Shown: positions 8,659 to 52,952, counted from the stretch's first letter. The stretch: 64,000 nt of DNA from an uncultured Alphaproteobacteria bacterium (GCA_963791925.1 CAWBUA010000003.1:296604-360603), one strand, 5' to 3'. Program-made: numbers and translations. The notes: generated from the sequence alone by a model not told the origin.

Positions 8659-8668
8659 GGATCGGCTG

Positions 8669-9463: not shown

Positions 9464-9485
9464 TGCATGATCGCGGGGTAAGCTG

Positions 9486-10181: not shown

Positions 10182-10215
10182 ACCCAATTGGCCGCGCCGA
10201 CGTGACGTTTGATCG

Positions 10216-17422: not shown

Positions 17423-17496
17423 TGGCTGGGGAACTAGGATTCGAACCTAGATTAACGGAGTCAGAGTCCGCAGTTCTACCGTTGAACTATTCCCCA
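17423..17496 (-). tRNA. tRNA-Gln (anticodon CUG), CCA encoded
   Basis: Reverse complement TGGGGAATAGTTCAACGGTAGAACTGCGGACTCTGACTCCGTTAATCTAGGTTCGAATCCTAGTTCCCCAGCCA folds as a cloverleaf. Acceptor TGGGGAA/TTCCCCA, D stem GTTC/GAAC, anticodon stem GCGGA/TCCGT with loop CTCTGAC, T stem CTAGG/CCTAG with TTCGAAT loop. Confidence 0.9.
17460..17496. repeat. Left copy (attL-like) of a 37-nt direct repeat, equal to nt 1-37 of tRNA-Gln
   Basis: gtcagagtccgcAgttctaccgttgaactattcccca matches 52916-52952 at 36 of 37 positions. Confidence 0.85.
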
Positions 17497-17724: not shown

Positions 17725-18456
17725 TCACCATCGAGCCCATAGCCGTTTGGCCAATTGGTGCTCCTCCCGGCCGCTCACGTCGCCATAAATTGCGGTCGTG
17801 CGAAGCGACGCGTGGCCGAGCCATCGCTGGACCATGTGCGGCGGAACAGCTTGGAACGCGACCACTCCGAACGCGTGGCGCAAGCCCTTTGGCATGGCGG
17901 CGCTGCCGGAAATGCCCGCGTGCCTCATGACGTTCTTCACGTGGCGCCATCCGGTGCTGCAACTCCACTGCCACAGACGCCTGCCGGCGAGACCGACATC
18001 TTGCTCACGCTTCGGCAAATCAAAGACCGCGGCCAGCTCGTCGATCACTCGCGACGGCAGCGGCACTTGGCGTATGACGTGAGACCGGCGGCGTTTCAAC
18101 GTCTCTATGGCGACGATCCCGGCGTCGCGATCGATGGCGAGCGGGGTGATTGCCAATGCTTCGGAAACGCGGCAGCCGCTCCACATGAGTACCAGGCAAA
18201 ACACGCGAACCTGCGGAGGCATCGTCTCGGCCGCGGCGGCGAACCGCTGACGCTCCGTGGCATTGAGATATTTTCGCCCGCCGAAGTTCGTATGGAGGCT
18301 CATACTGTCGCGGGAGCGGCGAGCCACACTTGGGGATGAGACCGTTTGCTGCGCTCGATCGTGCAACACTATGGCCAATAGTGTTGCAATCGGATTCGCC
18401 AGCGTTTTGCGCGCGGTTGAGCGGAGGTGAAAAGCCTTTGTGAATCTCTTGGACAT
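17725..18456 (-). CDS. Small tyrosine recombinase / phage-integrase-family protein
   Basis: 243 aa. Catalytic-domain motifs SGCRVSEAL (Arg), GLRHAFG and WLGHASLRTTAIYGDV (His...Tyr). No long N-terminal arm-binding domain. Confidence 0.8.
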   Translation of the reverse strand: MSKRFTKAFHLRSTARKTLANPIATLLAIVLHDRAQQTVSSPSVARRSRDSMSLHTNFGGRKYLNATERQRFAAAAETMPPQVRVFCLVLMWSGCRVSEALAITPLAIDRDAGIVAIETLKRRRSHVIRQVPLPSRVIDELAAVFDLPKREQDVGLAGRRLWQWSCSTGWRHVKNVMRHAGISGSAAMPKGLRHAFGVVAFQAVPPHMVQRWLGHASLRTTAIYGDVSGREEHQLAKRLWARW

Positions 18457-18580
18457 ATTATTGGAGAATTATCTTGATAAATCAAAGCACTGAAACACTA
18501 TTGGCCATAGTGTACCAACTTTACCGGGGTGTGCATCTGCCTTCAGAAATTTCCACGCATTGGTGCCACGGGGGACGGCC

Positions 18581-19075
18581 ATGCGGAAAGTGCTTGTTGT
18601 TTGTATTGCGCTGTCCACCGCGCAGTGCGCTTCGACGCCGACCGTCGAGCAAGTCAATGCACAGCGCGCAAAATGGGAAGCTGACTGCAAACAAAAGGGA
18701 TATGCGCCTGACACGCAGGATTTTCAAACCTGCATTAGCCTCGCTCAGAGCCACGACCTGTCACAGCCGCTTTATAGCGGGGTGGCGGTCGGAGGTGCGA
18801 TGGGCGCGGCAGGTCTTGGCGCCATGCTTCTTGGGGCGTTTTCTGACATCCGCCTGAAGCGTGACATCGTCCGCGTGGGGCAACTTCCTAATGAAATTTC
18901 CCTGTATCGCTTCCGCTACAATTGGAGCGATGAGGAGTTTGTGGGCGTCATGGCGCAAGAGGTCCGACACATCATGCCCAAGGCGGTCATCGAAGGACCC
19001 GACGGATATCTTCGCGTCAACTACGGACTGCTCGGGTTGACGTTTATGACCTACGAACAATGGGCCGCCCAATGA
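18581..19075 (+). CDS. Secreted protein with C-terminal S74-type intramolecular chaperone (tail-fibre/endosialidase chaperone) domain
   Basis: N-terminal hydrophobic signal MRKVLVVCIALSTAQC. The C-terminal SDIRLKRDI...GVMAQEVRHIMPKAV...LRVNYGLL matches the SDxRxK...AQEV...P.AV pattern of Peptidase_S74. Confidence 0.65.
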   Translation: MRKVLVVCIALSTAQCASTPTVEQVNAQRAKWEADCKQKGYAPDTQDFQTCISLAQSHDLSQPLYSGVAVGGAMGAAGLGAMLLGAFSDIRLKRDIVRVGQLPNEISLYRFRYNWSDEEFVGVMAQEVRHIMPKAVIEGPDGYLRVNYGLLGLTFMTYEQWAAQ

Positions 19076-19128
19076 CGCCCTTCGGCTTGTGCTGCACGGC
19101 GGTCGGAGGCTGAACGGTTGAGGACCGG

Positions 19129-20859
19129 TTGAACTCGGAACCGGTGATTGCCAAGTATGCCCTGGGGGTTTGCGGGGGACTTGTGGGCATGGTTGCCGGC
19201 TTGTGCCGCGTTTTAGCGGCGCTGGCGATGTTGGCGGTTCCAGTCGTCGCCGTTGCGCAAGTCATTCCGCCGAGTGAGCAGCCCGGACGGGAGCGGCAGC
19301 AATTCATTCAGCCGCCCGCGCCGCTTGCACAGCCCGCCGCGCCAACGGTAACTTTGCCGAGCACGGTCGCGCCCAAAGGCGCCGAGAAGGTGTTTCTCCA
19401 TGTGCGCGGGGTTCGCATCGCCGGCTCGACGGTGTTCACCGCCGAGCAACTCGCGCCGCTGTATGCCGGTCTCATCGGCAAGCGTGTGTCGCTTGCGGCG
19501 ATCTACGAACTCGCGCAGCGCATCACGGCCAAATACGGCAGTGACGGCTACGTGTTGTCCCGCGCCGTCGTGCCGCCGCAGCAACTCGATCCCAAGGGCG
19601 CGGTCGTTCGCATCCAAGTCGTCGAAGGCTACATCGACAAGGTCGAATGGCCGCCGGGGCTTTCTCGCTACCGCGACTTTTTCACCGATTACGCCGCGCG
19701 GATTACCGCCCAGCGGCCGGCTAATATCCGCACCATCGAGCGCTATTTGCTCCTTGCCGGCGATTTGCCGGGCCTGAAATTTTCGAGCAGCTTGCGGCCG
19801 TCCAAAGAGACCAGTGCCTCGGTGCTCGTGGTTGCAGTTACCGAAAAGCCGTTTGACGCCAATGCGCACGTCGATAATCGCGGAACGGCGGCGCGCGGGC
19901 CGTTTGAATATTACGGCTCTGCGACCGTGAACAATTTGCTCGGGTGGCAGGAGGCGCTGACGCTGACGTATGCCGGCGTGGTGCCTCTCAAAGAACTCAA
20001 CTATGCCGCGGCCAATTACCGGCAGGTGCTTACCAGCGAAGGACTGGCGTTCTTTGCCGATTTCAGCGACGCCTGGGGCACGCCGGGAACGGCGTCGCTG
20101 GAAGCGCTGCAATACCGCACGCTCGGACCGTACGGCGACGCGGGGCTGTCGTATCCCGTCATCCGCTCGCGCGAGCGAAATCTTACGGTCTCGGGTCTGG
20201 GCTTCGCCAGCAACAGTGAGAGCGATGTATTGGGCGCGCCGTTTAACAACGACCGGCTGCGCGGCTTTCGCGCGCGGGCCGACGGCGACTTTGCCGACTC
20301 CTGGCAGGGCATCAATCAGGTCTACGGCATCGTCAGCCAAGGCATCAGGGGCCTGGGTAGCACGGCGAACGGCAATCCGCTGGCTTCGCGTGCCGTCGGC
20401 CGCGTCGATTTCAGCAAGGTCGAGGGATATGCCGGCCGCACGCAGCCGCTGCCAGCAAACTTTTCAACCTACATGGCGGCGTACGGCCAATATGCCTTTA
20501 CGCCGTTGCTAACTCCGGAACAATGCGGCTTCGGCGGCCGATATTTCGGCCGGGCGTTCGATCCGTCGCAACTACTGGGCGACTCCTGCATCGAAGCGAC
20601 CGGCGAGCTTCGATACGACTTCCGGTCCCTGCCGTGGCAGATTACGCAAGCGCAGTTCTACGGCTTCGCCGATTGGGGCGAGCTGCACACGCTCCAGGCG
20701 TCGCCCGGCACGCCGTCCATAGCCGATGCCGCGTCCGTGGGCGCCGGGACACGGCTGGGCTGGTCTAATCACATCGATGCCGACCTTTCCGTTGCGAAGG
20801 CAATCGAGGGGCCGCGCAACGACTGGCGGTTCTTTTTCGTCGTCGCGGCGAGGTATTAG
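19129..20859 (+). CDS. ShlB/FhaC/HecB-family two-partner secretion transporter (TpsB)
   Basis: POTRA-like block VRGVRIAGSTVFTAEQLAPLYAGLIGKRVSLAAIYELAQRITAKYGSDGYVLSRAVVPPQ...VVEGYIDKV, a beta-barrel C-terminus ending in aromatic residues, and a position directly upstream of the TPS-domain exoprotein. The start is uncertain (alternative ATG at 19189). Confidence 0.85.
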   Translation: MNSEPVIAKYALGVCGGLVGMVAGLCRVLAALAMLAVPVVAVAQVIPPSEQPGRERQQFIQPPAPLAQPAAPTVTLPSTVAPKGAEKVFLHVRGVRIAGSTVFTAEQLAPLYAGLIGKRVSLAAIYELAQRITAKYGSDGYVLSRAVVPPQQLDPKGAVVRIQVVEGYIDKVEWPPGLSRYRDFFTDYAARITAQRPANIRTIERYLLLAGDLPGLKFSSSLRPSKETSASVLVVAVTEKPFDANAHVDNRGTAARGPFEYYGSATVNNLLGWQEALTLTYAGVVPLKELNYAAANYRQVLTSEGLAFFADFSDAWGTPGTASLEALQYRTLGPYGDAGLSYPVIRSRERNLTVSGLGFASNSESDVLGAPFNNDRLRGFRARADGDFADSWQGINQVYGIVSQGIRGLGSTANGNPLASRAVGRVDFSKVEGYAGRTQPLPANFSTYMAAYGQYAFTPLLTPEQCGFGGRYFGRAFDPSQLLGDSCIEATGELRYDFRSLPWQITQAQFYGFADWGELHTLQASPGTPSIADAASVGAGTRLGWSNHIDADLSVAKAIEGPRNDWRFFFVVAARY

Positions 20860-20870
20860 GGGCGCATGCG

Positions 20871-23075
20871 ATGAGCCGATTGCAACGATTGTTGCTCACC
20901 ACTGCGGCGCTCCTGCCGCTCGGTTTCGCCCCGGCTTTCGCAGGGCCGAATGGCGCTACGGTCGTGGGTGGTGCGGCGACCGTGCAGGGACAGGGGACTG
21001 CGTCGGTCGTCGTCAATCAAACAACTCAGAACGCCATTATCAACTGGAACACGTTTAATATCGGCACTGGAGAGAAAACAGCGATCAATATGCCGGCCGC
21101 GAGTTCGGTCGAACTTGACCGCGTGACCGGCAATCTCGGACCTTCGCAAATTCTCGGTTCGCTTTTCTCTAACGGGCGCGTGTTTCTGGTCAATCCGGAC
21201 GGCATCCTGTTCGGGCAGGGCGCGAAGGTAAACGTCGGCGGCCTGCTGGCGACCACGCATGATATCGCCAACAGCGATTTCATGGCCGGTCGCTACAACT
21301 TTTCAATTCCCGGCATGCCGAACGCCTCCGTCGTCAACGAGGGAAGTATCACGGCGCAGACCGGCGGCTTCGCGGCGCTGGTGGCGCCCGGCGTGCGCAA
21401 CACCGGTATCATCACGGCGAAATTGGGCACCGTTGCGCTCGCGTCCGGCAATGCCTTCACGCTCGATTTCTACGGCGACAATCTCATCAATCTTGGTCTC
21501 AACGATTCCATTGCATCAAGCGTCACGGACGTTTCGACCGGACAGCCGCTCTCTTCGCTCGTAAGCAACGCCGGGACGCTGAAGGCTAATGGCGGGCGCG
21601 TCGAGCTGACCGCTGTGGCGGCCCGCGCGGTGGTTGACTCCGTCATCAACAATACCGGCGTCGTCGAAGCAAACACGATCGGCACCCATAACGGTATGAT
21701 TGTGCTTGGGGCTGCGACCGGAGCAAGCAAGCCGGCGGGGGCGCCGACGCAAACCGTCAAGGTCTCCGGCAAGCTCTCCGCGGCCGGCAAGCGCAAGGGA
21801 ACGGGCGGCACCGTGGTGGTTACGGGCGAGAATGTTCAGCTCAGCGCCGCGAACATCAATGCCTCCGGCCGCAGCGGCGGAGGGGCGGTGCTTATCGGCG
21901 GCGATACCGGCGGCGGCAATCCGAGCACGCTCGCGGCGTCAATTTCTGGAGCCGCGCTTGAGCCCTTCGCAGTGCCCACCGCCACGACGGTTGGCGTTGA
22001 CGCCAACTCCCTCATTAACGCATCGGCGACCGGCCGGGGCAATGGCGGTAAGGTCATCGTCTGGTCGAACGAGGCGACGACATTTTACGGAACCGTTCTC
22101 GCGACAGGTGGAGGTGGCGGCGGCAATGGCGGGTTTGTGGAAACGTCTGGGCATGTACTTGCCTTCAATGGCAAGGTGAATACAGGCGCACCGACCGGCG
22201 CGAAGGGCATGCTTCTGCTTGATCCTATGAACGCGATCATTGCCGCGACCGCCGGAAACGAGGTCATTACGGTCTCGTCGATTGAGAGCGCCCTGGCGAC
22301 AGGCGATGTTCTTGTTACGACCGCGGCGACGACCGGCGGCGAGGCTGGCGATATCTCGGTGGCATCGAGCCTCAGTTGGGCAAACGCCAACACGCTGACG
22401 CTCAACTCTTATCGCGACATCACCATCAATGACGGGGTGACCATTGCGAACACTGGAGCGGGAAACCTGGTGCTACGTGCTGACGCGACCGGCCTAGGCG
22501 TCGGCACGGTCAATTTCCTCGGCACCGGTCAGGTAGATTACTCGCAAAGCATTGGCGGGGTTTCAATTTACTACAACGCTGCGGACAATCCGGCAGGAAG
22601 CATTATCAACGCAACAAGCTACGCGAGCCCAACCGACTACTCACAATATGTGCTGACTAACAGCGCGGTGCCGGGACAGCTCGCGGCGTACATGCTCGTG
22701 AACTCAGTATATGATCTGCAAAATATTCAGAACAATCTGTCCGGCAATTACGCGCTCGGCGCGAATATCGACGCGAGTGGAACGGCGAGTTGGAACGCGG
22801 GTGCCGGGTTTGTGCCGATTGGGAATTCCAGTACACCATTCGTCGGAGCATTCGATGGCCAGGCACATACGATTGACAGTTTGGTAATTAACTCGTCCGC
22901 CCTTTACGTCGGATTATTCGGATATGTTGGAACATCTGGGATCGTTAAAAATCTTGGACTCACTAACGCGTTGATCGACAGCGGGCCAAACACGCTCGCC
23001 GCAGGCGGGATAGCGGGAGCGAATTCGGGACAATCGCAAATTCGTACGTCAGCGCGCCGGGGTCGGTGCCCGTGA
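20871..23075 (+). CDS. TpsA exoprotein, N-terminal segment (TPS secretion domain, beta-helix, first GLUG repeats), truncated by a frameshift
   Basis: Signal peptide followed by the TPS domain NAIINWNTFNIGTGE...VFLVNPDGILFG. Also GGGNGGFVETSG. It ends in out-of-frame junk (SQIRTSARRGRCP) after ...GGIAGANSG. Confidence 0.85.
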   Translation: MSRLQRLLLTTAALLPLGFAPAFAGPNGATVVGGAATVQGQGTASVVVNQTTQNAIINWNTFNIGTGEKTAINMPAASSVELDRVTGNLGPSQILGSLFSNGRVFLVNPDGILFGQGAKVNVGGLLATTHDIANSDFMAGRYNFSIPGMPNASVVNEGSITAQTGGFAALVAPGVRNTGIITAKLGTVALASGNAFTLDFYGDNLINLGLNDSIASSVTDVSTGQPLSSLVSNAGTLKANGGRVELTAVAARAVVDSVINNTGVVEANTIGTHNGMIVLGAATGASKPAGAPTQTVKVSGKLSAAGKRKGTGGTVVVTGENVQLSAANINASGRSGGGAVLIGGDTGGGNPSTLAASISGAALEPFAVPTATTVGVDANSLINASATGRGNGGKVIVWSNEATTFYGTVLATGGGGGGNGGFVETSGHVLAFNGKVNTGAPTGAKGMLLLDPMNAIIAATAGNEVITVSSIESALATGDVLVTTAATTGGEAGDISVASSLSWANANTLTLNSYRDITINDGVTIANTGAGNLVLRADATGLGVGTVNFLGTGQVDYSQSIGGVSIYYNAADNPAGSIINATSYASPTDYSQYVLTNSAVPGQLAAYMLVNSVYDLQNIQNNLSGNYALGANIDASGTASWNAGAGFVPIGNSSTPFVGAFDGQAHTIDSLVINSSALYVGLFGYVGTSGIVKNLGLTNALIDSGPNTLAAGGIAGANSGQSQIRTSARRGRCP

Positions 23076-26000
23076 GTACGGTGGGAACCAGCAACCAAAC
23101 CTACAGTACTTACGTGTTGGGACAATATGCGTATGTGGTCGAAGCCAACGATCTAAAAATCATAAATATCAATAATCCAAACAACCCACAGGTCGTCGGT
23201 TCCTATACGGGACTTTCAGGTGGTTATTCGGTGGTCGTTGTTGGTACCTATGCGTATGTGTCGGACTACGGTGCTGGTCTCAAAATTATAAATATTGGAA
23301 ATCCGGCGGCGCCGTCGTTGGTGGGTACGTTTCCAATTGCGATGAATTCAAACACTTCGATAGCAGTGTCAGGTAACTACGCATACCTCAACGACTATGT
23401 TAATGGCGCGGTGCGCATCGTCGATATAAGCAATCCCGCCAGCCCCAACCTCATTGCAACATACTTGCCGCCTGGTGGATTCCCAGGCTCGGTCGCGGTT
23501 TCAGGGCATTATCTCTACATCGGTGATTTTTCAGGAGCTGTCGAAATCGTCGATGTCTCAAATCCCGCCTCCCCTTCACTGGTGGGAAGTTATTTGGTCA
23601 GTCCGCTTCCTCAGCACCCAGCCGCCGGTACACCCAGTAGCCCTTTAGGGTTTTCTATTTCTGGAAACTATTTGTACGTGGCCGACCAGGGTACGGGGCT
23701 GTACATTCTTAACCTCGCAAACCCCACCTCACCGTCGCTCGTCGGCAGCTACGATCCGGGCGGCAATAGCGGTACTAGCTACACAGGTATTCAAATCGTG
23801 GGAAATTTTGCGTATTTGTCGGACAGCCTGGGAAGCTTAGTAAAGATTAACGTAAGCGATCCCGCGTTGCCGCAACTAGCGGGCGTGGCGGTCACGGGCG
23901 GAACGCCGTGGGATGTTTTCGTTGCAAATGGGTATGCATATGTGTCCGCTCGAAACAGCGGGCTGGAGATTTTCGATATCAACTCAATTGGTCCCGCCAT
24001 TAGCGGTGGTGGAAATTCGGCTGTCGGGGCGCTGGCCGGCAACAATTCTGGGGCGATCGATCAATCGTACGCAAGTGAAGTTGTCAGCGGGTATGTCAGC
24101 GTGGGAGGGCTTATTGGAGCAAACGCGGGAAGCATCTACGGATCATACGCAAGTGCACCGGTGGTCGGATTGGGACCCGTCGGGGGATTAGTCGGAAGTA
24201 ATTCAAATGCAATTTCGCAATCCTATGCGAGCGGCTCGGTCAATGGGACTACCACCGCGGGCGGACTGGTCGGAGACAATTCCGGTCCTATTTCTCAGGC
24301 GTTTGCCACTGGGAACGTATTCGGCTCAACCGCAGGGGGATTGATTGGTTCGAACGACGAATTGGGCGTGATCGCGCAAGACTTTGCGATCGGTGTGGTC
24401 GACGGCTATCAGTATACTGGCGGTCTGGTGGGTTCAAATTTGGGTCTAATTGAAGGGTCGTATGCGACTGGTGCCATTTTGGGAAATAACGACCTCGGAG
24501 GGCTGGTTGGAATAAACCTTGGAATAAACTACTCATTTACTGGAACAATTACGAATTCGTTTGCGACCGGCCCAATCCAATCCGTAGGGTACAACGTGGG
24601 AGGATTGGTCGGGGAAAACGACGGAACAATTTTTCAATCGTATGCCACAGGTGAAATAGTACAGGGCGGCGTGAATTCTGCTGGGGGCCTGGTGGGAACA
24701 AATTTTGGTTCTATCGATCAATCATACGCCAGCGGTACGGTCACCGGCGTAACAGACCTCGGTGGGCTGGTCGGACACAATAATAACGGATTGATAAGCA
24801 ACTCCTATGCGACCGGCTCTTTGGTTGATCCATACGGATTCTATCAAAATATCGGTGGGCTGGTCGGCTATGACGGCGGCAGCGTTACAGGGTCTTACTC
24901 GACGGGAGTGGTACCGGGAACAGGCAATGTTGGGGGATTGATTGGGGGCGGTGGTGGCGGACAAACAAACAATTCGTATTGGGATGTCTTGACTTCAGGA
25001 CAACCGAACAGCTTCGGTGGTAGTCCATCGCCGCCCGCACTGCTGAAGGGGGTGATCCCTGCGGGTTTCGATCAAACAATTTGGGCAATCGATGCTAACA
25101 CGAATTACGGCTACCCTTATCTACAATGGCAGCTGACGAACACAACTCAACCGCAGCTCGCGGGCTCATTGCCGACATGGTTCAGCAATTCGGTGTGGGG
25201 AAGCAATCCAAGCATCAATAACGGCTATCCCTATCTGCTGTGGCAGGTTGCGAGCACATCGCCGACAGCGCCAACGATTTTGACGCCGACAGCGGGATTA
25301 TCCCTGACACCACCTCCTCCGCCTCCACTATCTACGACAACGACCACCACGCAGAGCTTGCCGCCGGCACAGAATCAAATAAATCCGACGCAGTCGAATA
25401 CACAGGCGGCCGAATCGACGCCGCCGGTGATTGTCACACCGATTTGGAATGCGCCTCCAACCAACAACAATCTGATTCCTAACAGTTACATGTGGACCGG
25501 ACTTCTAGGCCCGATTACACCTGGAGAGCTTCTAAATAGGTCCAAGCCTCTCATTGATATAATAAATCAGTGGTGGACCAACACTGGAACTTACCAGGAT
25601 TGGACGTTCTTTGCAAAACAAATGGGCTATACCGATTTGGAGATTGCACTACTGAAACTCACTGGCTTTCAGGCTGCCGTCTACCTTACTCCGACAGGAC
25701 AACCTGTTCTCGTGTTTCAGTCAACAAAACCATGGTATCCGGCAGACTTAGCGACAGATGCCTTGAACGATCTATACGCTAAGATGGATATTCCGGATGA
25801 CGTGGCGCCCCAATACGGGTTCGCGGCTCTTTTAGCCGCTCAAGCGGAAAAGGACTATCCGTTTGGCAATCTTCTCCTGACGGGATTTTCGCTCGGCGGC
25901 GGGCTTGCCGCATATGCAGGCTCTATGGACAAGATACCCGCGGTAACGTTCGATCCGGCTGGGCTTACTCAAAGCTCTAATTACAATTCTCAATATGTTC

Positions 26001-26251
26001 TGAATTTTCAGCTCAACGGAGATCCCGCTCAAGCAGGGGGTAGTCTAATCGGCACGACAATTCAATTCGGGCAACAAACTTCAGAAGAAGCTCTTTCAGC
26101 TGTGGGAGTGCCAAGTGGAACCCCGAGCAGTTCCTTTTCGGCTCACGGCAAAGCGATGAATGCATTCAATTATCTAGCCACCACCTCCAACCTTGCAATT
26201 ATGAGCAGTACAAGCACCTCTGATACTCAGGTGTACGCTGTGGGGCCTTAG
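23066..26251 (+). CDS. TpsA exoprotein, C-terminal segment (LVIVD beta-propeller repeats, GLUG repeats, Pro/Thr linker, lipase-like alpha/beta-hydrolase end)
   Basis: About 7 repeats of the type G.YAYV.D...GL.I.D.SNP..P.LVG. Many GGLVG.N.G.I..SYA.G (GLUG) repeats. The linker is PPPPPPLSTTTTTTQ. The C-terminal domain has the GFSLGGGLAAYAG (GxSxG) nucleophile elbow. The reading frame continues upstream to about 23030 (TIANSYVSAPGS), joining the previous ORF. Confidence 0.8.
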   Translation: MPVSTVGTSNQTYSTYVLGQYAYVVEANDLKIININNPNNPQVVGSYTGLSGGYSVVVVGTYAYVSDYGAGLKIINIGNPAAPSLVGTFPIAMNSNTSIAVSGNYAYLNDYVNGAVRIVDISNPASPNLIATYLPPGGFPGSVAVSGHYLYIGDFSGAVEIVDVSNPASPSLVGSYLVSPLPQHPAAGTPSSPLGFSISGNYLYVADQGTGLYILNLANPTSPSLVGSYDPGGNSGTSYTGIQIVGNFAYLSDSLGSLVKINVSDPALPQLAGVAVTGGTPWDVFVANGYAYVSARNSGLEIFDINSIGPAISGGGNSAVGALAGNNSGAIDQSYASEVVSGYVSVGGLIGANAGSIYGSYASAPVVGLGPVGGLVGSNSNAISQSYASGSVNGTTTAGGLVGDNSGPISQAFATGNVFGSTAGGLIGSNDELGVIAQDFAIGVVDGYQYTGGLVGSNLGLIEGSYATGAILGNNDLGGLVGINLGINYSFTGTITNSFATGPIQSVGYNVGGLVGENDGTIFQSYATGEIVQGGVNSAGGLVGTNFGSIDQSYASGTVTGVTDLGGLVGHNNNGLISNSYATGSLVDPYGFYQNIGGLVGYDGGSVTGSYSTGVVPGTGNVGGLIGGGGGGQTNNSYWDVLTSGQPNSFGGSPSPPALLKGVIPAGFDQTIWAIDANTNYGYPYLQWQLTNTTQPQLAGSLPTWFSNSVWGSNPSINNGYPYLLWQVASTSPTAPTILTPTAGLSLTPPPPPPLSTTTTTTQSLPPAQNQINPTQSNTQAAESTPPVIVTPIWNAPPTNNNLIPNSYMWTGLLGPITPGELLNRSKPLIDIINQWWTNTGTYQDWTFFAKQMGYTDLEIALLKLTGFQAAVYLTPTGQPVLVFQSTKPWYPADLATDALNDLYAKMDIPDDVAPQYGFAALLAAQAEKDYPFGNLLLTGFSLGGGLAAYAGSMDKIPAVTFDPAGLTQSSNYNSQYVLNFQLNGDPAQAGGSLIGTTIQFGQQTSEEALSAVGVPSGTPSSSFSAHGKAMNAFNYLATTSNLAIMSSTSTSDTQVYAVGP

Positions 26252-26520
26252 TGACTTCTTTGCGCTGAAGCGCCCCAACCTATTGCGCCTAAAACAAGCA
26301 TAAAAAAGCCCGCCGTGAAGCCGGGGATAAAGACGAATATCGCGTCGGCACACCCGACGGTATTGCCATTCAGTTGACAATAGATAATGCCGAATACCCA
26401 CGGCCCAACCAATAATATCCCACCCAGGATCATAGTGTAAAAGCAGATGCGGTTGAAGATGTATTTCCTTTTCTTTGAGGATGATGGCTGCACGAGTTCT
26501 TTTTGTTCGCTAGTGTCCAT
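26248..26520 (-). CDS. Small membrane protein, hypothetical (convergent with tpsA)
   Basis: 90 aa with two to three hydrophobic helices (FYTMILGGILLVGPWVFGIIY, IFVFIPGFTAGFFMLVLGAIGWG). Low GC like the tpsA 3' part. Confidence 0.45.
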   Translation of the reverse strand: MDTSEQKELVQPSSSKKRKYIFNRICFYTMILGGILLVGPWVFGIIYCQLNGNTVGCADAIFVFIPGFTAGFFMLVLGAIGWGASAQRSH

Positions 26521-27887: not shown

Positions 27888-29318
27888 GGTGCCGTCCGGA
27901 ATGCGGTTGGAATTCGGTGTGGCGCATTCTCCGGTAACATGAAGGTATCGTTTCAGGCTGCAAGGTCAATCGGCTGATCGATGGGCTTTGTAGCGAGCGT
28001 CTGCCAACCATCAACCTTGCGCATGTTGATCTGTCCTGAGGCGAGCAGCGCCCAGAACAGCATGGCAGCGGTGTCGGCGGATGGCAGAACAGTTTGGGTC
28101 TTGATCCGCCGCTTGAATTCCTCGTGCAATCGCTCGATGGCATTTGTGGTGCGTAAGCTGCGCCATTGGCTCGGAGGCAGGCGGGTGAAGGTGAACAAGC
28201 GTTCTCCGGCCTCCTCCAGGCTGTCGGCGACAGCGCGATGCTTGAGCCTCCATTTGCGGATGAAAGCCTTGCGGCGGATCTCTATCTCCTCAGGTGTCGC
28301 CGCGTAGATCATGTCGTTGTAATCCGCGGTGATCTCGTCATGCAGTCGCTCGGGGGCATGCGCGAACAGGTTTCTGTGCTTATGAACCGTGCAGCGCTGG
28401 ACCGGCACGCCATCCCAGACAGAGGCAATGGCCTTGTCGAGTCCTGGCGCACCGTCGACAATAAGGAACTCGGGTCGCCGCAGCCCGCGCTTGATAAGAT
28501 CGTCGAGGACAGTGCGCCAGGCCTCGGTGCTCTCGCCGCCCATGCTCTTGATCGCGAGCAGCACCTTCTGGCCGTCCGCGCGCACACCGAGAACGACCAG
28601 CAGCGAGATGGCAGTCGCTTTGCGATCGAGCCGCACACGAACGACGGTGCCGTCGAGGATCAGGCGCACAATCGGCTCCTCGGCCAGCGAGCGGGTGTTC
28701 CAGGCGTCCCAGTCGCTCTTTACCTTGCGCCATGTCCGGCTCACCGTGTCCTTGCCGACCGTTCCGCCGAACAAGGCCGCCAGCGCGCGACGCACCCGCC
28801 TTGTATTGGTGCCGGCGAGATACGTGCTCGCGATCAGGGCGTCGGCGGCAAGCGTGCGCCGCTGATAGGCCCGCAGCGCCTGACTTTTCCATTCCGCCGT
28901 CTTGCCCTCGGAAGTGGTCAGCCGGGCGCGCGGCACCGCAATCTCGATCGGCCCGAACGTGCCTGTCAGCGACCGCGTCCGGCTGCCGTGACGGTGACCC
29001 GCAACGCCGGCTCTTCCTTCATTGCCGGCCATCTGGCTTCGTCCGTAACGCGGCCGTGCCAGCAGAGCGTCGAGCTCGCCGCGGATCAACTCTTCGACGA
29101 ACTCACGCGCTCGAGCCCGCACCTCGGTCTCGATCGGATCAAACCAATTGTCGAAAAGATCAACAGCCATTTTGGCCGCAGGCTGCAAAGAATCAGGCTT
29201 CGTGGTATTGCTCGTCATGGCGTGGTCTCCAGTCCGACGCTTCAACGCCGGATGATTCGAGGTTGAACACCCCGGAGACTACGCCACCCTCAATTCCTAC
29301 CAACTCCGCGACGGCACC
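27888..29318. mobile_element. IS256-family insertion sequence (1431 bp) with 8-bp target-site duplication
   Basis: Perfect 9-bp termini GGTGCCGTC/GACGGCACC within imperfect inverted repeats of about 45 bp. Flanked by direct CGACACGC at 27880-27887 and 29319-29326. Carries one Mutator-type transposase gene. Confidence 0.85.
27953..29218 (-). CDS. IS256-family (Mutator-type) transposase
   Basis: The translation has the layout I recognise for IS256-family transposases (ELIRGELDALLARPRYGR, LILDGTVVRV, LIVDGAPGLDKAI, QRCTVHKHRNL, ERLHEEFKRRIK). ATG at 29218; the long ORF starts at 29245. Confidence 0.9.
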   Translation of the reverse strand: MTSNTTKPDSLQPAAKMAVDLFDNWFDPIETEVRARAREFVEELIRGELDALLARPRYGRSQMAGNEGRAGVAGHRHGSRTRSLTGTFGPIEIAVPRARLTTSEGKTAEWKSQALRAYQRRTLAADALIASTYLAGTNTRRVRRALAALFGGTVGKDTVSRTWRKVKSDWDAWNTRSLAEEPIVRLILDGTVVRVRLDRKATAISLLVVLGVRADGQKVLLAIKSMGGESTEAWRTVLDDLIKRGLRRPEFLIVDGAPGLDKAIASVWDGVPVQRCTVHKHRNLFAHAPERLHDEITADYNDMIYAATPEEIEIRRKAFIRKWRLKHRAVADSLEEAGERLFTFTRLPPSQWRSLRTTNAIERLHEEFKRRIKTQTVLPSADTAAMLFWALLASGQINMRKVDGWQTLATKPIDQPIDLAA

Positions 29319-31557: not shown

Positions 31558-33867
31558 TTACCATTCTTCGCGGGACTGCTTCTTGTGTTTTGAGGTGTTG
31601 AGTTCGGCGGGCCCGGTTTGCGGAGCGTCAGAGGTTCGGCGATAGAGTATGTGGATGACGCTGCCCCGGGTGCCATCGGTTCGAAACGTGCCATAGTTGG
31701 GAAATCGGATTCGGTAACCCTCGCGCATATTGGCGGGGATCGAAACCTTCAGAGTCTTCCATTCGGTGCCATGTACATTGACCCGTACTTTGGCTGAGTA
31801 GAATCCCCCCTTATCCGCGACATTAGGATTGATATAATTTTCCTCGTACAGCTCGTCGGTCGGAATATCGCGCTTTGCATACCGTGCGCGCATGGTGAGC
31901 ATGAGCGTGTGATACTCGTAGTCACCGATGAGCGGGTATTGCAGCGTATCAGCAAACGTCTGCGTGTCGTCATTGAGCTTGTGGTGGGGAACTGGGAGCA
32001 GCTCCGCGGTTTTGGTTTTAAATTTCACAAACGCGGCAAAGTGCCCCTGGTCAATCGTAGCCAACACATCGGACGGGGTGTTAGGGAAGTAAGCGGAAGC
32101 CATGGGGTCTCCGGTGGTATTGAACAGCTTTATTGCACAGGTATTGAGCGAGGCGCGCACTTTTTCGTCGTCGATTTGTTTTAAAAACTGATGGGCGAAG
32201 GTGAGCGAGATGCGCTTGGATCGGAGTTGGGTAATCATATCGTCGATGTGCCTATCATTGGCGATGACGTAGTGAGCTTCATCGAGGAAGACATAGACTG
32301 GCTTCTTGCCTTTGCGCTGACGGCCGGCATACCAGATGAGTGCAAGAAAAAGGCGCCCAAGAAATTCAGAGCCAAAGGGACTTAAAAGGGTATAGCTATT
32401 GTTGATGCAGATGACTTTGCCGCTATCGAGCAAGTCCGCCATATTGATCCGCGTGTCCTTGCTGGAGAGAATGGGGCCGAGCCATTTGTTGTTTAAAATG
32501 ATACGTAACCGGGCCTGAATCTCCGCGCGGCGTTCGGCATAGCGTGGCCCGTTGAACTCTTTTTCAAAAAAGCGCTGATCTCGCGGGGGTAGCTGAGTGA
32601 TTTCTTTTTGATAAGCCTTCGCGCCGTCAACCACGATGTCCCAAAAGGTCTCCATCGTAGGCTTGGGTACTTTTTCCAGCAGATTGATGATTTGCGTGAA
32701 TGGAATGGATTGATGGGCGGTCAGGCCGGTATTGAAGACCCCAAACAGGTAGTCGAGAAATTCCGATGGGTGGCCAGTGGCGAACGGATTGATGGCGAGA
32801 GGATAGTCGGGCGTCGTTTCCAAAATGATCAGGCGGTCTTTGATGGCCGCGAGACGATGAAATGAGCTGAATAAATCACCTTTCGAATCAAGAATGATGA
32901 TAGTGGCGTCCTGCTCCAGGCGGTTGAGTATGAGGTGACGCAAAAGATTGGTTTTGCCGGCGCCGGATGCGGCCACAATCCAGCACGCCTCGAACCAGCG
33001 GTCCTCGGGGATATCGAAGGGGATGTCTACGGATTGATTAGAAATCTTGTGCCGGTGTGGGAAATAGGGAGAATAGAAAAAAGAGATTTCCCAGGCCTTG
33101 GTGTCCTGACGCACCTGCTTGTGCTGCTTGGCGTGGCGCTCTTTCCGTACTTTCCACAAGGACAAGTCTAGTTGCTGAAAGTCCTGCTTTCGGGTCCGTT
33201 CCCCGGCTTCGTGCCGACGCTTGCGGTCGCGCCAATCGGCCTTGTCCCATTTGTCATCTACGGGTTCGGATTCGGTGAAATAATCCGGATAAAAGATTGG
33301 CTCGGGCTCATCGAATTCGTCCCAGCAAGGGGGAAGGAATAAATTGCGGTGGGGGAAAATGCCGTGTTTGGCGAGCTGTTCGCAGGCCTCGGCAATCGGG
33401 GCGTTGAGGGCGTTTGGGATTTCGGCAAAGTCAGGAGCAAAATCGTCGGCGGCGAGAAGCGCGCGGGTGACTGAGAACAACGGCGAAGAGCGAACGTTTA
33501 GTGCTGTTCGTGCATGGGCCGGAAATCCCTTGGTGCACTCAACGAGGCTTTTAAGGAACGTTCTGAGAAATGTCTTATACGTTTCGGTTGGGTCTACGAG
33601 TTTGAGTAAATGTCGCTGCTGGTCGGTATCTGGCAAGTCGGCGGGAAACTCATCAGCATAAATATCCCCGATGGTTTCGATGAGCTTAGCAAGAAACTGT
33701 TTAGGCAGTATCAGATAGTCATACAACGGCGCTGCCTCCTGGAGATAAAGGTCCAAGAGACTTTCTTGAAGCCGCCGACGGGAATACGGCGCAAGGGCCG
33801 TACGCCATAGAGCACGGTTAAGCTCCAGTTCATAGACTTTGCGGCGTGCGGGATCGAGTACAGTCAT
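31558..33867 (-). CDS. FtsK/HerA/VirD4-superfamily P-loop ATPase (coupling-protein-like), 769 aa
   Basis: Walker A AASGAGKTN, Walker B PVYVFLDEAHYV, and downstream LTFAHQFLKQI. The C-terminal roughly 90 aa is a beta-rich extension (KVSIPANMREGYRIRFPNYG). Confidence 0.7.
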   Translation of the reverse strand: MTVLDPARRKVYELELNRALWRTALAPYSRRRLQESLLDLYLQEAAPLYDYLILPKQFLAKLIETIGDIYADEFPADLPDTDQQRHLLKLVDPTETYKTFLRTFLKSLVECTKGFPAHARTALNVRSSPLFSVTRALLAADDFAPDFAEIPNALNAPIAEACEQLAKHGIFPHRNLFLPPCWDEFDEPEPIFYPDYFTESEPVDDKWDKADWRDRKRRHEAGERTRKQDFQQLDLSLWKVRKERHAKQHKQVRQDTKAWEISFFYSPYFPHRHKISNQSVDIPFDIPEDRWFEACWIVAASGAGKTNLLRHLILNRLEQDATIIILDSKGDLFSSFHRLAAIKDRLIILETTPDYPLAINPFATGHPSEFLDYLFGVFNTGLTAHQSIPFTQIINLLEKVPKPTMETFWDIVVDGAKAYQKEITQLPPRDQRFFEKEFNGPRYAERRAEIQARLRIILNNKWLGPILSSKDTRINMADLLDSGKVICINNSYTLLSPFGSEFLGRLFLALIWYAGRQRKGKKPVYVFLDEAHYVIANDRHIDDMITQLRSKRISLTFAHQFLKQIDDEKVRASLNTCAIKLFNTTGDPMASAYFPNTPSDVLATIDQGHFAAFVKFKTKTAELLPVPHHKLNDDTQTFADTLQYPLIGDYEYHTLMLTMRARYAKRDIPTDELYEENYINPNVADKGGFYSAKVRVNVHGTEWKTLKVSIPANMREGYRIRFPNYGTFRTDGTRGSVIHILYRRTSDAPQTGPAELNTSKHKKQSREEW

Positions 33868-39556: not shown

Positions 39557-39567
39557 TTAAAACATCT

Positions 39568-43685: not shown

Positions 43686-43795
43686 CGGCCGAGATGGAAA
43701 CGCGATCGGGAAATTGACCGAAGTTGTATTTTTCTGGGGGCGGATAAGGAAAGGGGCCGTAATGAGTTGGCCACCAGCTGAGGGGGCTGGGAAGC

Positions 43796-51635: not shown

Positions 51636-52772
51636 TCATGCCGCTCGGGCGGTGTCAGGTACGTCTTCGGCGGCAGGGAGCTTCGAAAGATAATTCTCCC
51701 ATTTTTCAATGGCCGCCCGCATCTCTGGCAAATAGGTATAAACGTCGTACGTGCGCTCCATATCTGTTCGGGCTGAGATGTGATTGACGAGCCGCTCGGC
51801 TATGTGGGGTGCTACGCCCAACTTGCCGAGGTTGGTGCGGAAGGTCCGGCGAATGTCGTGCAGCGTCCAGCTGGTGACACCGCTTATTCGATCGAGCGTG
51901 GCCTTGGCTTTGCCCCAGCCGCAGAATGGCTTGTTGGGCTTATTCCTGGCGGGGAACAGAAGTCCTATATCGGCTTGCGCCGCGAGTATCTCTTTCGCCC
52001 GTGCGCTGATTGGAAGGGTATGCGCCTGCTTGTTTTTGGTGATCTCGCCGGGGAGCGTAATGGCGTCAGTCCCGATCCAGGCCCGGTTGAGCGCGGCGGT
52101 TTCCGTTTCGCGCTGACCTAGGAGAATCAGCAATCGGACCATCGTTTGAAAATGTCGCGGGAGTTTCTCGGAGTTGCACGCGTCCCAAATCTTTTTCAAT
52201 TCAACATCGGTCAGAATGCGGGACCGGCGTTTGCGCTCATAGGCTGATATGCCAACTACAGGATTGTCGGTGATGTAGCGGCGCCCCATGCACCAATTGA
52301 AAAAAATAATGGCAACGGTGCGGGCATGATTATGCTCGGCCGGCACGTCTTTCAATCTTTGGAGCCGGTGCGCGATCTGCGCGTGAGTTACATCCCTCAA
52401 CTGACCCTTGAAGGAGAAATGTCGTTTGAGGTGTCGCGTGTAGTCGGCGAGGGTGCGCGGTCTGGCGCTCTTGGCTTTCTCCGCGAGGAAAAGCTGCACC
52501 GCCTCGGAATAGGGGAGGGACTGCGGACGCAGCCGGCCAAGGGTGAATTCGGCGAGCAGCCGTTTTGCTTCAGCGCGCGCTTCCTGGAGCGAAATGACGG
52601 GGTATCGGCCTAAGGAAATAAAGCGACGGTCCGACCCAACCTGCAAAAAGAAGGTGCGTGTATCGCCCTGAGATACACGGACTCCAAATCCATGCAGGGT
52701 GTCATCGCAGAGTTTGATCTGACCCTTGGCAGGCACAGGTGTCGCTCGGATCGCAACGTCGGTGAGACGCAT
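51636..52772 (-). CDS. P4-type tyrosine integrase (DUF4102 arm-binding N-domain plus catalytic domain)
   Basis: N-terminus MRLTDVAIRATPVPAKGQIKLCDDTLHGFGVRVSQGDTRTFFLQ is typical of P4-like integrases. C-terminus HDIRRTFRTNLGKLG...LVNH...YDVYTY carries the catalytic residues. Lies 143 nt from the tRNA-derived repeat. Confidence 0.9.
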   Translation of the reverse strand: MRLTDVAIRATPVPAKGQIKLCDDTLHGFGVRVSQGDTRTFFLQVGSDRRFISLGRYPVISLQEARAEAKRLLAEFTLGRLRPQSLPYSEAVQLFLAEKAKSARPRTLADYTRHLKRHFSFKGQLRDVTHAQIAHRLQRLKDVPAEHNHARTVAIIFFNWCMGRRYITDNPVVGISAYERKRRSRILTDVELKKIWDACNSEKLPRHFQTMVRLLILLGQRETETAALNRAWIGTDAITLPGEITKNKQAHTLPISARAKEILAAQADIGLLFPARNKPNKPFCGWGKAKATLDRISGVTSWTLHDIRRTFRTNLGKLGVAPHIAERLVNHISARTDMERTYDVYTYLPEMRAAIEKWENYLSKLPAAEDVPDTARAA

Positions 52773-52774
52773 CT

Positions 52775-52792
52775 TAGCCTCGCTATAGCCTC
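52775..52792. repeat. 18-nt direct repeat TAGCCTCGCTATAGCCTC (right copy)
   Basis: Identical to 17540-17557. Starts 3 nt upstream of the integrase start codon. Confidence 0.6.
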
Positions 52793-52915
52793 AGACAGCC
52801 CCGGTGCTGGGGCGTGAAGCTATGCGCGACGTTGGATCAGAAGTGGCCGGTAATAAAGGACAAGTTCGACGTTGATGTGGAACGGTGGAGCACCATGAAA
52901 CAGGTGCGGCACTAT

Positions 52916-52952
52916 GTCAGAGTCCGCTGTTCTACCGTTGAACTATTCCCCA
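52916..52952 (-). repeat. Right copy (attR-like) of the 37-nt repeat, a tRNA-Gln 5'-half fragment
   Basis: gtcagagtccgcTgttctaccgttgaactattcccca. The only difference from the intact gene is at tRNA position 25 (unpaired). No 3' half follows. Confidence 0.85.

Follow-up and report, generated by a model that had tools for sequence, protein, structure and literature searches.

A mosaic two-partner secretion protein with a lipase-like end, probably a polymorphic effector, on a mobile island of an uncultured alphaproteobacterium

What does a protein of predicted export do that carries a lipase-like domain at its tip, and is it still made from a gene whose reading frame is broken? Both questions are raised by tpsA (20871-26251, plus strand), a gene within a stretch of 64,000 nucleotides from an uncultured alphaproteobacterium, which is called the window. 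On the same strand lies tpsB (19129..20859, putative start; GC3 0.76), encoding the predicted outer-membrane transporter partner, with Pfam matches to POTRA_2 (E 4.1e-18, 65.4 bits) and ShlB (E 1.5e-17, 64.5 bits). TpsA begins with an N-terminus that resembles a signal peptide by eye alone (20871-20942, plus strand; MSRLQRLLLTTAALLPLGFAPAFA followed by G) and continues with a TPS secretion domain at aa 25-282 (20943..21716, plus strand). An earlier, sequence-only reading of this DNA had recognized the domain by its NPDG motif; the motif lies at 21192-21203 (aa 108-111), and the domain was confirmed by both Pfam TPS (E 2.5e-28, 100.1 bits, cut-off 33.5) and TIGR01901 adhes_NPXG (E 3.9e-17, 61.9 bits, cut-off 29.1). 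The sequence matches support a two-partner secretion (type Vb) TpsA/TpsB system. The secretion domain is followed by a constant stalk reaching to about aa 650 (21717..22824, plus strand), as judged from sequence conservation among relatives: many relatives with different distal parts share it at 73-88% identity, and the DNA homology of tpsA to two related loci, L005 and L006, stops at 22822-22824. No Pfam family was assigned to the stalk, which, by analogy with TpsA biology, may be a beta-helix.

The sequence-only reading had described tpsA as the gene of a protein of about 1790 aa. The ATG at 20871 and the stop at 26251 were borne out; the span between them, however, is 5381 nt, which three does not divide, so that tpsA in the window is no single open reading frame. 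One frame (ORF1, 20871-23075) encodes 734 aa and overlaps by 10 nt with another (ORF2), which runs from a GTG at 23066 to 26251 (1061 aa) and within which a public gene call of 1006 aa (P0125) has its start. The frame change cuts through a single GLUG repeat unit, GGIAGAN/GTIANSY. We placed a 1-nt deletion at 23024..23025 (plus strand), where the window has GAAT/TCGGG and soil-metagenome contigs have GAAT-C-TCGGG or GAAT-C-TAGGG. Contigs from three runs of public soil metagenome data contain the extra C, with thin support (a word depth of 2-3.3 in each run); one contig (X1) is 100% identical to the window except for this base, and two others (X2 and X4) are ~96% variants in which the codon at the site is a synonymous CTA/CTC. 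Adding the C restores the reading ...GGIAGANLGTIANSY... and yields a protein of 1793 aa, so the proposed size holds for the public contigs and the continuous frame does not hold for the window. Since contigs built from public short reads lack the deletion, the window probably shows either an error of assembly or a lesion of very recent origin, and tpsA is probably intact in the population.

If the deletion were instead real and tpsA a decaying pseudogene, just a 734-aa TpsA with the TPS domain, the stalk and one GLUG unit would be made, while the LVIVD, GLUG and lipase part would remain untranslated or, even if made, could not be secreted. The split is seen both in the window sequence and in the public gene call, and an IS256-family transposase inserted nearby in the island (27953-29245) suggests an island under reshaping. 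We nevertheless regard decay, and with it the loss of the distal part, as unlikely, given the extra C in contigs of three runs, the 1074 codons past the deletion with no second stop or frameshift, and a sister assembly (L001) in which tpsA is likewise broken, there as three separate calls within one gene (124, 635 and 326 aa). The 10-nt overlap and the GTG start of ORF2 could also be taken to mean that the two frames are genuine separate genes, or are joined by a programmed -1 frameshift. This is very improbable: one GLUG unit is divided by the frame change, ORF2 alone would be without signal peptide and TPS domain, and every relative reads straight across this point; moreover, we saw by eye no slippery heptamer at GAATTCGGGACA, and the public contigs regain the frame through a base, not through slippage.

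The restored frame leads from the stalk into a series of repeats and modules. By regular expression, ten GLUG units were mapped, one before and about nine after an inserted LVIVD region, and Pfam Glug (PF07581) matched in six stretches (82.3 bits, cut-off 20.5, E 1.2e-23); the array after the insertion (24005..24985, plus strand) is built of units of the form GGLVG.N.G.I..SY and has an SYWD motif at its end. The sequence-only reading had counted about seven LVIVD blades within the GLUG repeats at 23.1-24.0 kb, and Pfam LVIVD (PF08309) indeed found seven stretches at 23111..23986, plus strand (182.3 bits, cut-off 20.2, E 8.5e-55). An AlphaFold model of this region has 28 strands (7 x 4; pLDDT 85.2, pTM 0.86) and matches seven-bladed (WD40) propellers in Foldseek (TMq 0.78-0.79); the propeller is likely to be a binding module. 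Two GYPYLxWQ modules follow (25109..25246, plus strand; motifs at 25109-25132 and 25223-25246), a type found in 54 of the 121 family members scanned, and then a Pro6/Thr6 linker (25310-25351), all as read earlier. Linker and a junction box, QNQINP...AESTPPV (25370-25429; together 25310..25429, plus strand), stand ahead of the C-terminal cassette. The box, with the family consensus QNQINP...A[GE]STPxV, occurs in 13 of 54 relatives, each time 88-327 aa from the C-terminus, compared with a single match when the N-terminal 800 aa were scanned in 121 proteins. DNA homology to L006 (25190-25388) ends at this box.

The C-terminal domain (25430..26248, plus strand) resembles Tle and class-3 lipases, which are alpha/beta-hydrolases. 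Direct comparison with Pfam gave no significant match (the best was Abhydrolase_1, E 0.031), and neither Lipase_3 nor Mbeg1-like was listed even at a maximum E-value of 10. However, relatives of the domain exceed Pfam thresholds, P0001 and P0030 for Mbeg1-like (PF11187, DUF2974) and P0030 also for Lipase_3, and P0121, whose C-terminal domain is 51-53% identical, has a precomputed PF26363 'Phospholipase-like' assignment. A profile of the domain and its relatives matched Enterobacter cloacae Tle (E 3.2e-11) and Thermomyces lipase (~1e-8) among PDB entries. The best Foldseek match of the AlphaFold model (pLDDT 78.6, pTM 0.83, with loops of low confidence close to the Asp and His candidates) was again Tle, 9cys_A (E 2.3e-5, probability 1.0, TM-score just 0.49), followed by fungal class-3 lipases. 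Profile and predicted fold together support a lipase-like end related to the antibacterial T6SS phospholipase Tle, so that what had been proposed by eye stands on these comparisons and not on a direct Pfam match. The GFSLGG motif lies where it had been seen (25883-25900), and its nucleophile elbow GxSLGGGLA, with Ser1674, is invariant in our alignment (A1). Candidates for the rest of a catalytic triad in that alignment, Asp1718 (NGDPAQ, 26015-26032) and His1759 (SAHGK, 26138-26152), are shared by the window's domain and most of the relatives aligned. At the Asp site P0001 lacks an acidic residue, and the sequences of P0122 and P0123 stop short of one or both sites.

A family of 3621 relatives was recovered at E<=1e-10. 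Relatives are 60-77% identical to TpsA across the first 40% of the protein and have diverse ends (Peptidase_S8, CHAP, MBG_2, Phospholipase-like and unassigned domains); polymorphic toxins are recognized by such a pattern, in which an N-terminal part for trafficking and stalk is conserved and the C-terminal domains vary. The family is best read as a large, modular 'GLUG-type' TpsA family of soil Hyphomicrobiales-like bacteria. Best matches differ by segment: for the N-terminus the best is P0003 (88% identity), for the middle P0001 (48-58%), and for the C-terminal domain P0006/P0121 (53%), where P0001 reaches only 40%. It is because these matches are discordant, and not because of GC, that the distal part can be called mosaic, as had been suggested. 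The intact protein P0001 (1986 aa, 'filamentous hemagglutinin family protein', from a JGI soil metagenome) has the same order of TPS, GLUG, LVIVD x7, GLUG, GYPxL and lipase-like parts, and at its locus, too, TpsB is encoded upstream, a small membrane ORF follows directly in convergent orientation, and T4CP/Replic_Relax genes lie in the neighbourhood. In contrast to the window protein, to which it is 55% identical overall, P0001 has two MBG_2 domains before its C-terminal domain, which is of a GHSLGG subtype and is accompanied by an unrelated 118-aa membrane protein of four hydrophobic segments.

Directly behind tpsA, a 90-aa protein is encoded on the opposite strand (26248-26520, minus strand), its stop codon overlapping that of tpsA. 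This convergent gene is the sole small gene adjacent to tpsA, with no same-strand immunity gene directly downstream. The protein has two hydrophobic segments by hydropathy and, in alignment A4, a conserved loop C-x4-N-x2-GC-x-D. Its homologues (BLASTP 2e-14 and 7e-8) lie tail-to-tail behind the GFSLGG-type domain in L001, L004, L007 and L089, and a two-segment protein stands behind all five GFSLGG loci found (window, L001, L004 and L007/L089), which represent four lineages. Both loci of the GHSLGG subtype have an unrelated four-segment membrane protein instead, and L005 and L008, with other C-terminal types, have other small membrane partners; no membrane protein is adjacent in L006, a relative with a CHAP-like end. 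The sequence-only reading had named the 90-aa protein as the immunity candidate, and its co-variation with the lipase subtype makes it a credible one.

With CdiB/CdiA/CdiI the locus has in common a TpsB partner, a TPS exoprotein, a conserved N-terminus, a highly variable C-terminal cassette after a short conserved junction, a small neighbouring gene whose kind changes with that of the cassette, and a location on a mobile island. Unlike CdiA, TpsA has no recognizable receptor-binding or YP domain, and the stalk is made of GLUG repeats, to which an LVIVD propeller may or may not be added. FHA-2 and VENN elements carry CdiA toxins into target cells. Neither ORF of tpsA gave a Fil_haemagg or Fil_haemagg_2 match (FHA-1/FHA-2 repeats) in Pfam at E<=0.1, and motif and Pfam searches of TpsA found no VENN, VDNN or ELYN motif and no DUF637. 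Orphan C-terminal/immunity cassettes are absent downstream of tpsA. The candidate immunity gene runs convergent to tpsA and has a membrane protein as its predicted product, whereas immunity genes in CDI or Tle systems are co-directional.

E. cloacae Tle, an antibacterial PLA1/A2, has a Ser-Glu-His triad, and the known Tli immunity proteins are not membrane proteins but soluble lipoproteins of the periplasm (PMC11470151). The window family shares with Tle (PDB 9CYS/7UBZ) the GHSLGGGLA...TF(N/D)xAG sequence, the class-3-lipase-like alpha/beta-hydrolase and the Ser-acid-His triad (a candidate in the window). It differs in the GFSLGG of the window, in the window's candidate Asp at the place of the Glu of Tle, in delivery, which would be by two-partner secretion at the tip of a 1793-aa protein rather than by the T6SS, and in the partner, which is 90 aa long with two hydrophobic segments where Tli is an ankyrin-repeat lipoprotein. 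Lipase-like alpha/beta-hydrolases have been predicted as membrane-targeting C-terminal toxins of polymorphic systems, Tox-ABhydrolase-1 mainly with phage-baseplate modules and Tox-ABhydrolase-2 and -3 with classical polymorphic toxins (Zhang et al. 2012, PMC3482391). The text of that survey does not contain the word GLUG (PMC3482391).

Taken together, the locus probably encodes a polymorphic T5b effector with a Tle-like lipase end and an immunity-like partner, on a mobile island. TpsB, with its POTRA domain and ShlB barrel, would export TpsA via the N-terminal TPS domain, and the conserved stalk of ~650 aa would bear the variable distal part of GLUG solenoid, LVIVD propeller, two GYPYLxWQ modules, Pro/Thr linker and junction box. 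The cassette of ~270 aa at the end would be a class-3/Tle-like lipase with a candidate Ser-Asp-His triad and with the membrane (phospho)lipids of neighbouring cells as its most likely substrate, and the convergent 90-aa protein, predicted to reside in the inner membrane, most likely protects the producer. The tpsBA operon would travel as cargo of a 35.4-kb integrative mobilizable island.

Several observations count against the effector reading: FHA-2 and VENN, which might bring a lipase to a target's periplasm, are lacking, the window's own C-terminal domain has no direct Pfam lipase match, the TM-score to Tle is 0.49 in a model whose loops beside the candidate Asp and His are of low confidence, the candidate partner is convergent and, unlike Tli, a membrane protein, and L006 has no adjacent membrane protein. 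TpsA could, alternatively, be a secreted or surface lipase-adhesin that helps the cell to scavenge nutrients, to colonise surfaces or to interact with fungi, plants or protists, and that is no toxin against other bacteria. In that case a different task would fall to the small membrane protein, for instance protection of the producer during export alone, or a function in the mobile element. LVIVD propellers and GLUG repeats are typical features of surface proteins. Together with the missing CdiA-type translocation elements (FHA repeats, VENN, DUF637) and the convergent rather than operonic partner, this fits such a role, as do the general hydrolases (Peptidase_S8, CHAP) at the ends of other family members and the very large lipase superfamily (13761 clusters at E<=1e-3), which is mostly not toxin-linked. 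We still consider both parts of this alternative rather unlikely. Which small membrane protein is present depends strictly on the C-terminal subtype, with tail-to-tail packing in 5/5 GFSLGG loci, and the nearest relative of the domain, by solved structure and by sequence, is an antibacterial effector and no digestive lipase; the cassette-like junction and the C-terminal polymorphism also fit polymorphic toxin logic (PMC3482391).

A wider proposal, which we make tentatively and with some doubt, extends the effector reading to the whole family. In soil Alphaproteobacteria, GLUG-type TpsA proteins may form a class of type Vb polymorphic effectors that has not been described before, in which lipase, protease, amidase and membrane-active cassettes are swapped at the QNQINP...AGSTPxV box, each with a cognate convergent small inner-membrane immunity protein, and which are spread by tRNA-integrating mobilizable islands. 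If this were true, the window protein would be the T5SS-delivered counterpart of the T6SS phospholipase Tle, and the 90-aa protein would neutralise the lipase through a 12-residue Cys-bounded periplasmic loop.

Base composition had also been taken as a sign that the distal part was swapped. A discontinuity within tpsA was indeed computed: the 5' 1.5 kb has a GC of 0.622, as do the flanks (0.605-0.622), and the 3' 3.65 kb has 0.523, below the minimum of 0.597 for 125 equal-sized windows outside the island. The drop starts at ~22.5 kb, and GC3 falls too (from 0.67-0.79 to 0.45-0.57), so that the drop is not a matter of amino-acid composition. However, GC3 declines within the gene in 5/5 relatives examined, irrespective of their distal domains, and low GC runs on for ~30 kb through the mobile island that holds the whole tpsBA operon, returning to ~0.61 past 53 kb; the drop is therefore no evidence of a recent swap in tpsA. 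The island spans 35.4 kb between two tRNA-Gln-derived repeats (36/37 identity). At the left boundary, 37 nt (17460..17496, minus strand) correspond to the 5' half of tRNA-Gln(CTG) (gene at 17423-17496; ARAGORN and exact-word search), and the right end (51636..52952, minus strand) comprises an integrase at 51636-52772 (Pfam Arm-DNA-bind_3 and Phage_integrase) and the second repeat, located by alignment, at 52916-52952. The linkage to T4CP/Replic_Relax genes is shared by 6/7 other distinct loci (L001-L005, L008), and L007 ends before that module. From sequence, the element is best read as an integrative mobilizable island with the tpsBA operon as cargo. Directly upstream of tpsB it also encodes a short tyrosine recombinase of 243 aa (17725..18456, minus strand; Pfam Phage_integrase E 1e-15, with weak NCBIfam Xer/invertase matches), which is 87.7% identical in DNA to L005 7426-8236, and the gene order is shared with L005.

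The tpsA gene (20871-26251, + strand) had been read from the sequence alone as a single open reading frame of about 1790 aa. The window, however, does not contain such a frame. The stretch is 5381 nt long, which is not a multiple of three, and a mechanical ORF listing divides it into two frames: ORF1 (20871-23075, 734 aa) and ORF2, which starts with a GTG at 23066 and ends at 26251 (1061 aa), in a frame that is open from about 23030. The frame changes at 23024-23030, cutting through one GLUG unit, GGIAGAN..GTIANSYVSAPG. All three public soil metagenome runs whose contigs were aligned to this region carry one extra C after 23024 (GAATCTCGGG, as opposed to GAATTCGGG in the deletion form). In the first run, six contig pieces are 100% identical to the window except for the extra C, and a seventh (21498-21638) differs from it at 14 positions; the contigs of the other two runs are variants with about 96% identity. 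The restored codons read AAT CTC GGG ACA in the first run and AAT CTA GGG ACA, with a synonymous Leu codon, in the other two, and the gene with the restored C encodes a single protein of 1793 aa.

The split is present in the deposited assembly, since the public gene call on this contig (P0125, 1006 aa) starts within ORF2. Because the contig word depth is only 2-3.3, we word the origin of the frameshift with caution: most likely the deletion arose as an error of the assembly or is a lesion of very recent date, while a real pseudogene in the strain represented by the window is possible but seems to us rather improbable. Two separate genes, or a programmed frameshift, would also account for two frames and merit hardly any weight; inspection by eye reveals no slippery site, and in the public contigs the frame is regained through an additional base. 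The public assembly thus likely carries a consensus indel, through which one gene of 1793 aa is called as two. The tpsA homologue of another locus, L001 (ENA contig, 7518-10981), is called as three fragments of 124, 635 and 326 aa, which suggests indel errors in that assembly also; if the window comes from an L001-like assembly, its frameshift is more likely to be an assembly error.

The architecture of the restored protein is largely that recognized by eye. Pfam identifies a TPS domain at aa 25-282 (E 2.5e-28), with the NPDG motif where expected and an additional NCBIfam adhes_NPXG match, as well as GLUG repeats (E 1.2e-23) and seven LVIVD repeats (E 8.5e-55). The proposed insertion of about seven LVIVD blades was borne out: an AlphaFold model of 23051-24019 has 28 strands (7 x 4; pLDDT 85, pTM 0.86) and superposes on seven-bladed propellers with a TM of 0.78-0.79, and one GLUG unit precedes it and about nine follow, so that the propeller sits inside the GLUG array. 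The two GYPYLxWQ motifs, the P6/T6 linker and the GFSLGG motif were all found at the positions where they had been placed. The ORF directly upstream (19129-20859, + strand) encodes a TpsB with POTRA_2 and ShlB domains (Pfam).

The C-terminal domain had been called lipase-like. Taken alone, it gives only marginal matches, to Abhydrolase_1 in Pfam (E 0.031) and to the nucleophile elbow of lipoprotein lipase among PDB sequences (E 0.045). The assignment is nevertheless firm, because relatives pass or carry lipase families: P0001 and P0030 pass Pfam Mbeg1-like, P0030 passes Lipase_3 too, and P0121, P0005 and P0006, which are 50-53% identical to the window's domain, carry PF26363 'Phospholipase-like' in their source annotation. 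In an alignment of nine such domains the G-x-S-L-G-G-G-L-A elbow is invariant, and a class-3-lipase-like 'F(R/A/Q)(G/S)T' strand and a 'TF(D/N)xAG' motif are also present. The profile of this alignment matches, in the PDB, the E. cloacae T6SS lipase effector Tle (7UBZ/9CYS; E 3.2e-11), followed by Thermomyces class-3 lipases at about 1e-8. Consistent with this, 9cys_A was the sole Foldseek match below 1e-3 (E 2.3e-5, TM 0.49) for the AlphaFold model of the domain (pLDDT 78.6, pTM 0.83), and fungal class-3 lipases came next. By alignment, Ser1674, Asp1718 and His1759 form a candidate catalytic triad, in which the Asp and His are putative because they lie beside low-confidence loops of the model. 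A word-indexed homologue search with the domain alone returned 4 matches, and an exhaustive profile search was needed to reveal the superfamily, with 13761 clusters at E<=1e-3 and only 30 at E<=1e-30. A scan of GTDB representative genomes with the C-terminal profile detected no close TpsA; its matches, in Luteimonas, Dyella and Terrabacter among others, were all remotely related lipase domains that share at most 41% identity over stretches of at least 100 residues.

A small ORF (26248-26520, - strand, 90 aa) overlaps the tpsA stop codon tail to tail. Its product has two hydrophobic segments by hydropathy, basic residues ahead of the first, and an inter-segment loop of the form C48-x4-N-x2-G-C57-x-D59. 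Every GFSLGG-type C-terminal domain examined is followed, in the same convergent arrangement, by a homologue that shares this loop (BLASTP with the window copy, 2e-14 and 7e-8); these homologues are found in L001 (83 aa), L004, L007 (97 aa) and L089, the last being the L007 element from a different sample. This strengthens the earlier proposal that the protein is an immunity candidate. Their alignment has 13 invariant columns. A profile of the family found only the L004 copy in the homologue search and one locus, the same element as L007, in the metagenome scan; the family is rare and rarely called as a gene. Other C-terminal types have other partners. Behind the GHSLGG subtype (L002, L003) lie mutually homologous proteins of 118-124 aa with four hydrophobic segments, unrelated to the window's small-protein family; the partner in L005, whose TpsA ends differently, is another sort of multi-pass membrane protein (132 aa), and that in L008 is a co-directional membrane protein of 98 aa, while no adjacent membrane protein was found in L006, which has a CHAP-like end. 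Such co-variation of the partner with the C-terminal type is the pattern expected of cognate immunity genes, and makes the small protein a candidate for this role. In contrast to CdiI and Tli, it is convergent and membrane-located.

Taken together, we consider it reasonably probable that the system is a TPS-exported, Tle-like lipase effector with a small membrane immunity protein. TpsA would be exported through the Sec pathway and then TpsB, displaying a stalk of about 650 aa that would bear the GLUG solenoid with its propeller, which is likely to serve in binding, as well as a flexible Pro/Thr linker and the lipase; the latter would attack the membrane lipids of neighbouring cells, and the small inner-membrane protein would protect the producer and its kin via its periplasmic loop. 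A surface lipase-adhesin that is no interbacterial toxin we regard as unlikely; the partners that change with the C-terminal type are as cognate immunity genes would be. The antibacterial effector Tle has phospholipase A1/A2 activity and a Ser-Glu-His triad, and Tli, a periplasmic ankyrin lipoprotein, neutralizes it (PMC11470151); that polymorphic toxins can end in lipase-like domains was predicted in 2012 (PMC3482391). The individual parts are already known, and databases hold intact relatives of the same architecture, annotated only as filamentous haemagglutinin family proteins, among thousands of family members. In the literature library searched, no paper joins 'GLUG' with 'two-partner secretion', and broader searches brought up none on a TpsA with a lipase end. 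If the effector reading is true, a two-partner secretion protein can deliver a Tle-like antibacterial phospholipase on a non-CdiA scaffold, in which GLUG repeats form a solenoid that in some cases has an LVIVD propeller inserted, and a minimal membrane protein, as opposed to a soluble periplasmic lipoprotein, can give immunity to a lipase.

The protein is a mosaic, as seen from similarity rather than GC content, because the closest relative shifts along its length: P0003 for aa 1-300 (88% identity), P0015 for aa 301-650 (78%), P0007 for aa 651-732 (62%), P0001 for the propeller, second GLUG array and GYPYL modules (48-58%), and P0006/P0121 for the C-terminal domain (53%, with P0001 at only 40%). 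DNA homology to L005 and L006 stops at 22822-22824. The same lipase subtype is found on propeller-less scaffolds (P0005, P0121) or with a Calx-beta domain (P0006), and propellers are paired with non-lipase ends in P0007, P0034 and P0081. Ahead of the C-terminal cassette, 13 of the 54 relatives with a GYPxL module have a short box, QNQINP...[VMAI][AS][GENR]ST..V, whose distance to the C-terminus is always 88-327 residues; the pattern has a single match when the N-terminal 800 residues of 121 proteins are searched. A further stretch of DNA homology with L006 (25190-25388) ends at this box. It resembles the junction motifs of polymorphic toxins, but TpsA has no VENN motif (motif search) and no FHA-repeat or DUF637 match in Pfam. 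L002 also encodes, at 22627-23233, a second TPS+GLUG protein (1290 aa, weak DUF6861 match); it lies on the strand opposite to P0001 and about 9 kb downstream of it, so at least one contig has more than one family member.

The GC discontinuity noticed by eye is real: the first 1.5 kb of tpsA has a flank-like GC of 0.622, and the last 3.65 kb has 0.523, below all 125 equal-sized windows outside the island described below. Amino-acid composition is not the cause, since GC3 falls too (about 0.75 to about 0.52); between about 22.4 and 22.8 kb, values of 0.67-0.79 give way to 0.45-0.57. The swap of the distal part that this drop had suggested, however, does not follow. GC3 declines along tpsA in all 5 relatives whose DNA was compared, regardless of their distal domains: the first 300-400 codons have values of 0.56-0.83, the distal part about 0.4-0.6. 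In the window, low GC runs on to about 53 kb.

The region is flanked, at 17460-17496 and 52916-52952, by direct repeats of 37 nt that agree at 36 positions and correspond to the 5' half of tRNA-Gln, and they place the whole tpsBA operon inside a 35.4-kb island. Its low-GC stretch holds DUF3768-like small genes, a Replic_Relax relaxase and a TrwB/DUF87-type coupling protein, and an integrase lies at 51636-52772. A T4CP/Replic_Relax module occurs within 10 kb in 6/7 other distinct loci (L001-L005, L008); L007 shows DUF3768-type small genes before its contig ends, and the L006 locus has none of these island-type genes. In L003, L005 and L008, tpsB has recombinases or integrases on its upstream side, and the 243-aa recombinase directly upstream of tpsB in L005 is shared with the window (87.7% DNA identity). 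Given the family's large size, its location on mobilizable islands and its frequent occurrence in soil metagenomes, soil Hyphomicrobiales could be using it widely as a competition system.

The repeat covers the tRNA-Gln gene (17423-17496) from its 5' end to the anticodon loop, not the usual 3' part, and the integrase lies at the other end of the island from the intact tRNA, an arrangement opposite to that typical of tRNA islands. The 243-aa tyrosine recombinase has a copy of a 19-23-nt palindrome (ACACTATGGCCAATAGTGT; 18366-18388 and 18491-18513) on either side of its start codon; the two copies could be operator or recombinase-binding sites. The enzyme weakly matches FimB/FimE-type invertase models; a shufflon or silent cassettes inverted by it were considered and rejected, as tblastn and blastn found no second copy of distal tpsA, direct or inverted, in the window. 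Relative to L005, an insertion of about 600 bp (18521-19117) separates recombinase and tpsB and contains an ORF (18560-19075, 171 aa) with a fragment of a Peptidase_S74 (endosialidase chaperone) domain (E 3.2e-8). An IS256/Mutator-family transposase (27953-29245, - strand; Pfam E 1.3e-67), 1.4 kb downstream of the immunity candidate, has host-like GC (0.63, GC3 0.75) within the low-GC island, which it probably entered recently from the host genome. At 33864-35874 (- strand), adjoining the coupling-protein gene, ORFs of 355 aa and 407 aa, the latter with weak AAA_22 and TraG-D_C matches, overlap by about 280 nt in different frames, which could be another assembly indel or a real overlap. A type II restriction-modification pair carried as cargo of the island (38747-40377; TdeIII-family endonuclease, E 7.5e-37, and N6_N4 methyltransferase, E 3.4e-33) precedes a possible defence cluster at 40531-46202, where a GHKL-ATPase protein (HATPase_c_3) and its unassigned 552-aa partner on the minus strand come before a DpdB/DndB-like gene (PADLOC DpdB, E 1.1e-16), and where a 348-aa ORF weakly matches PDC-M34B.
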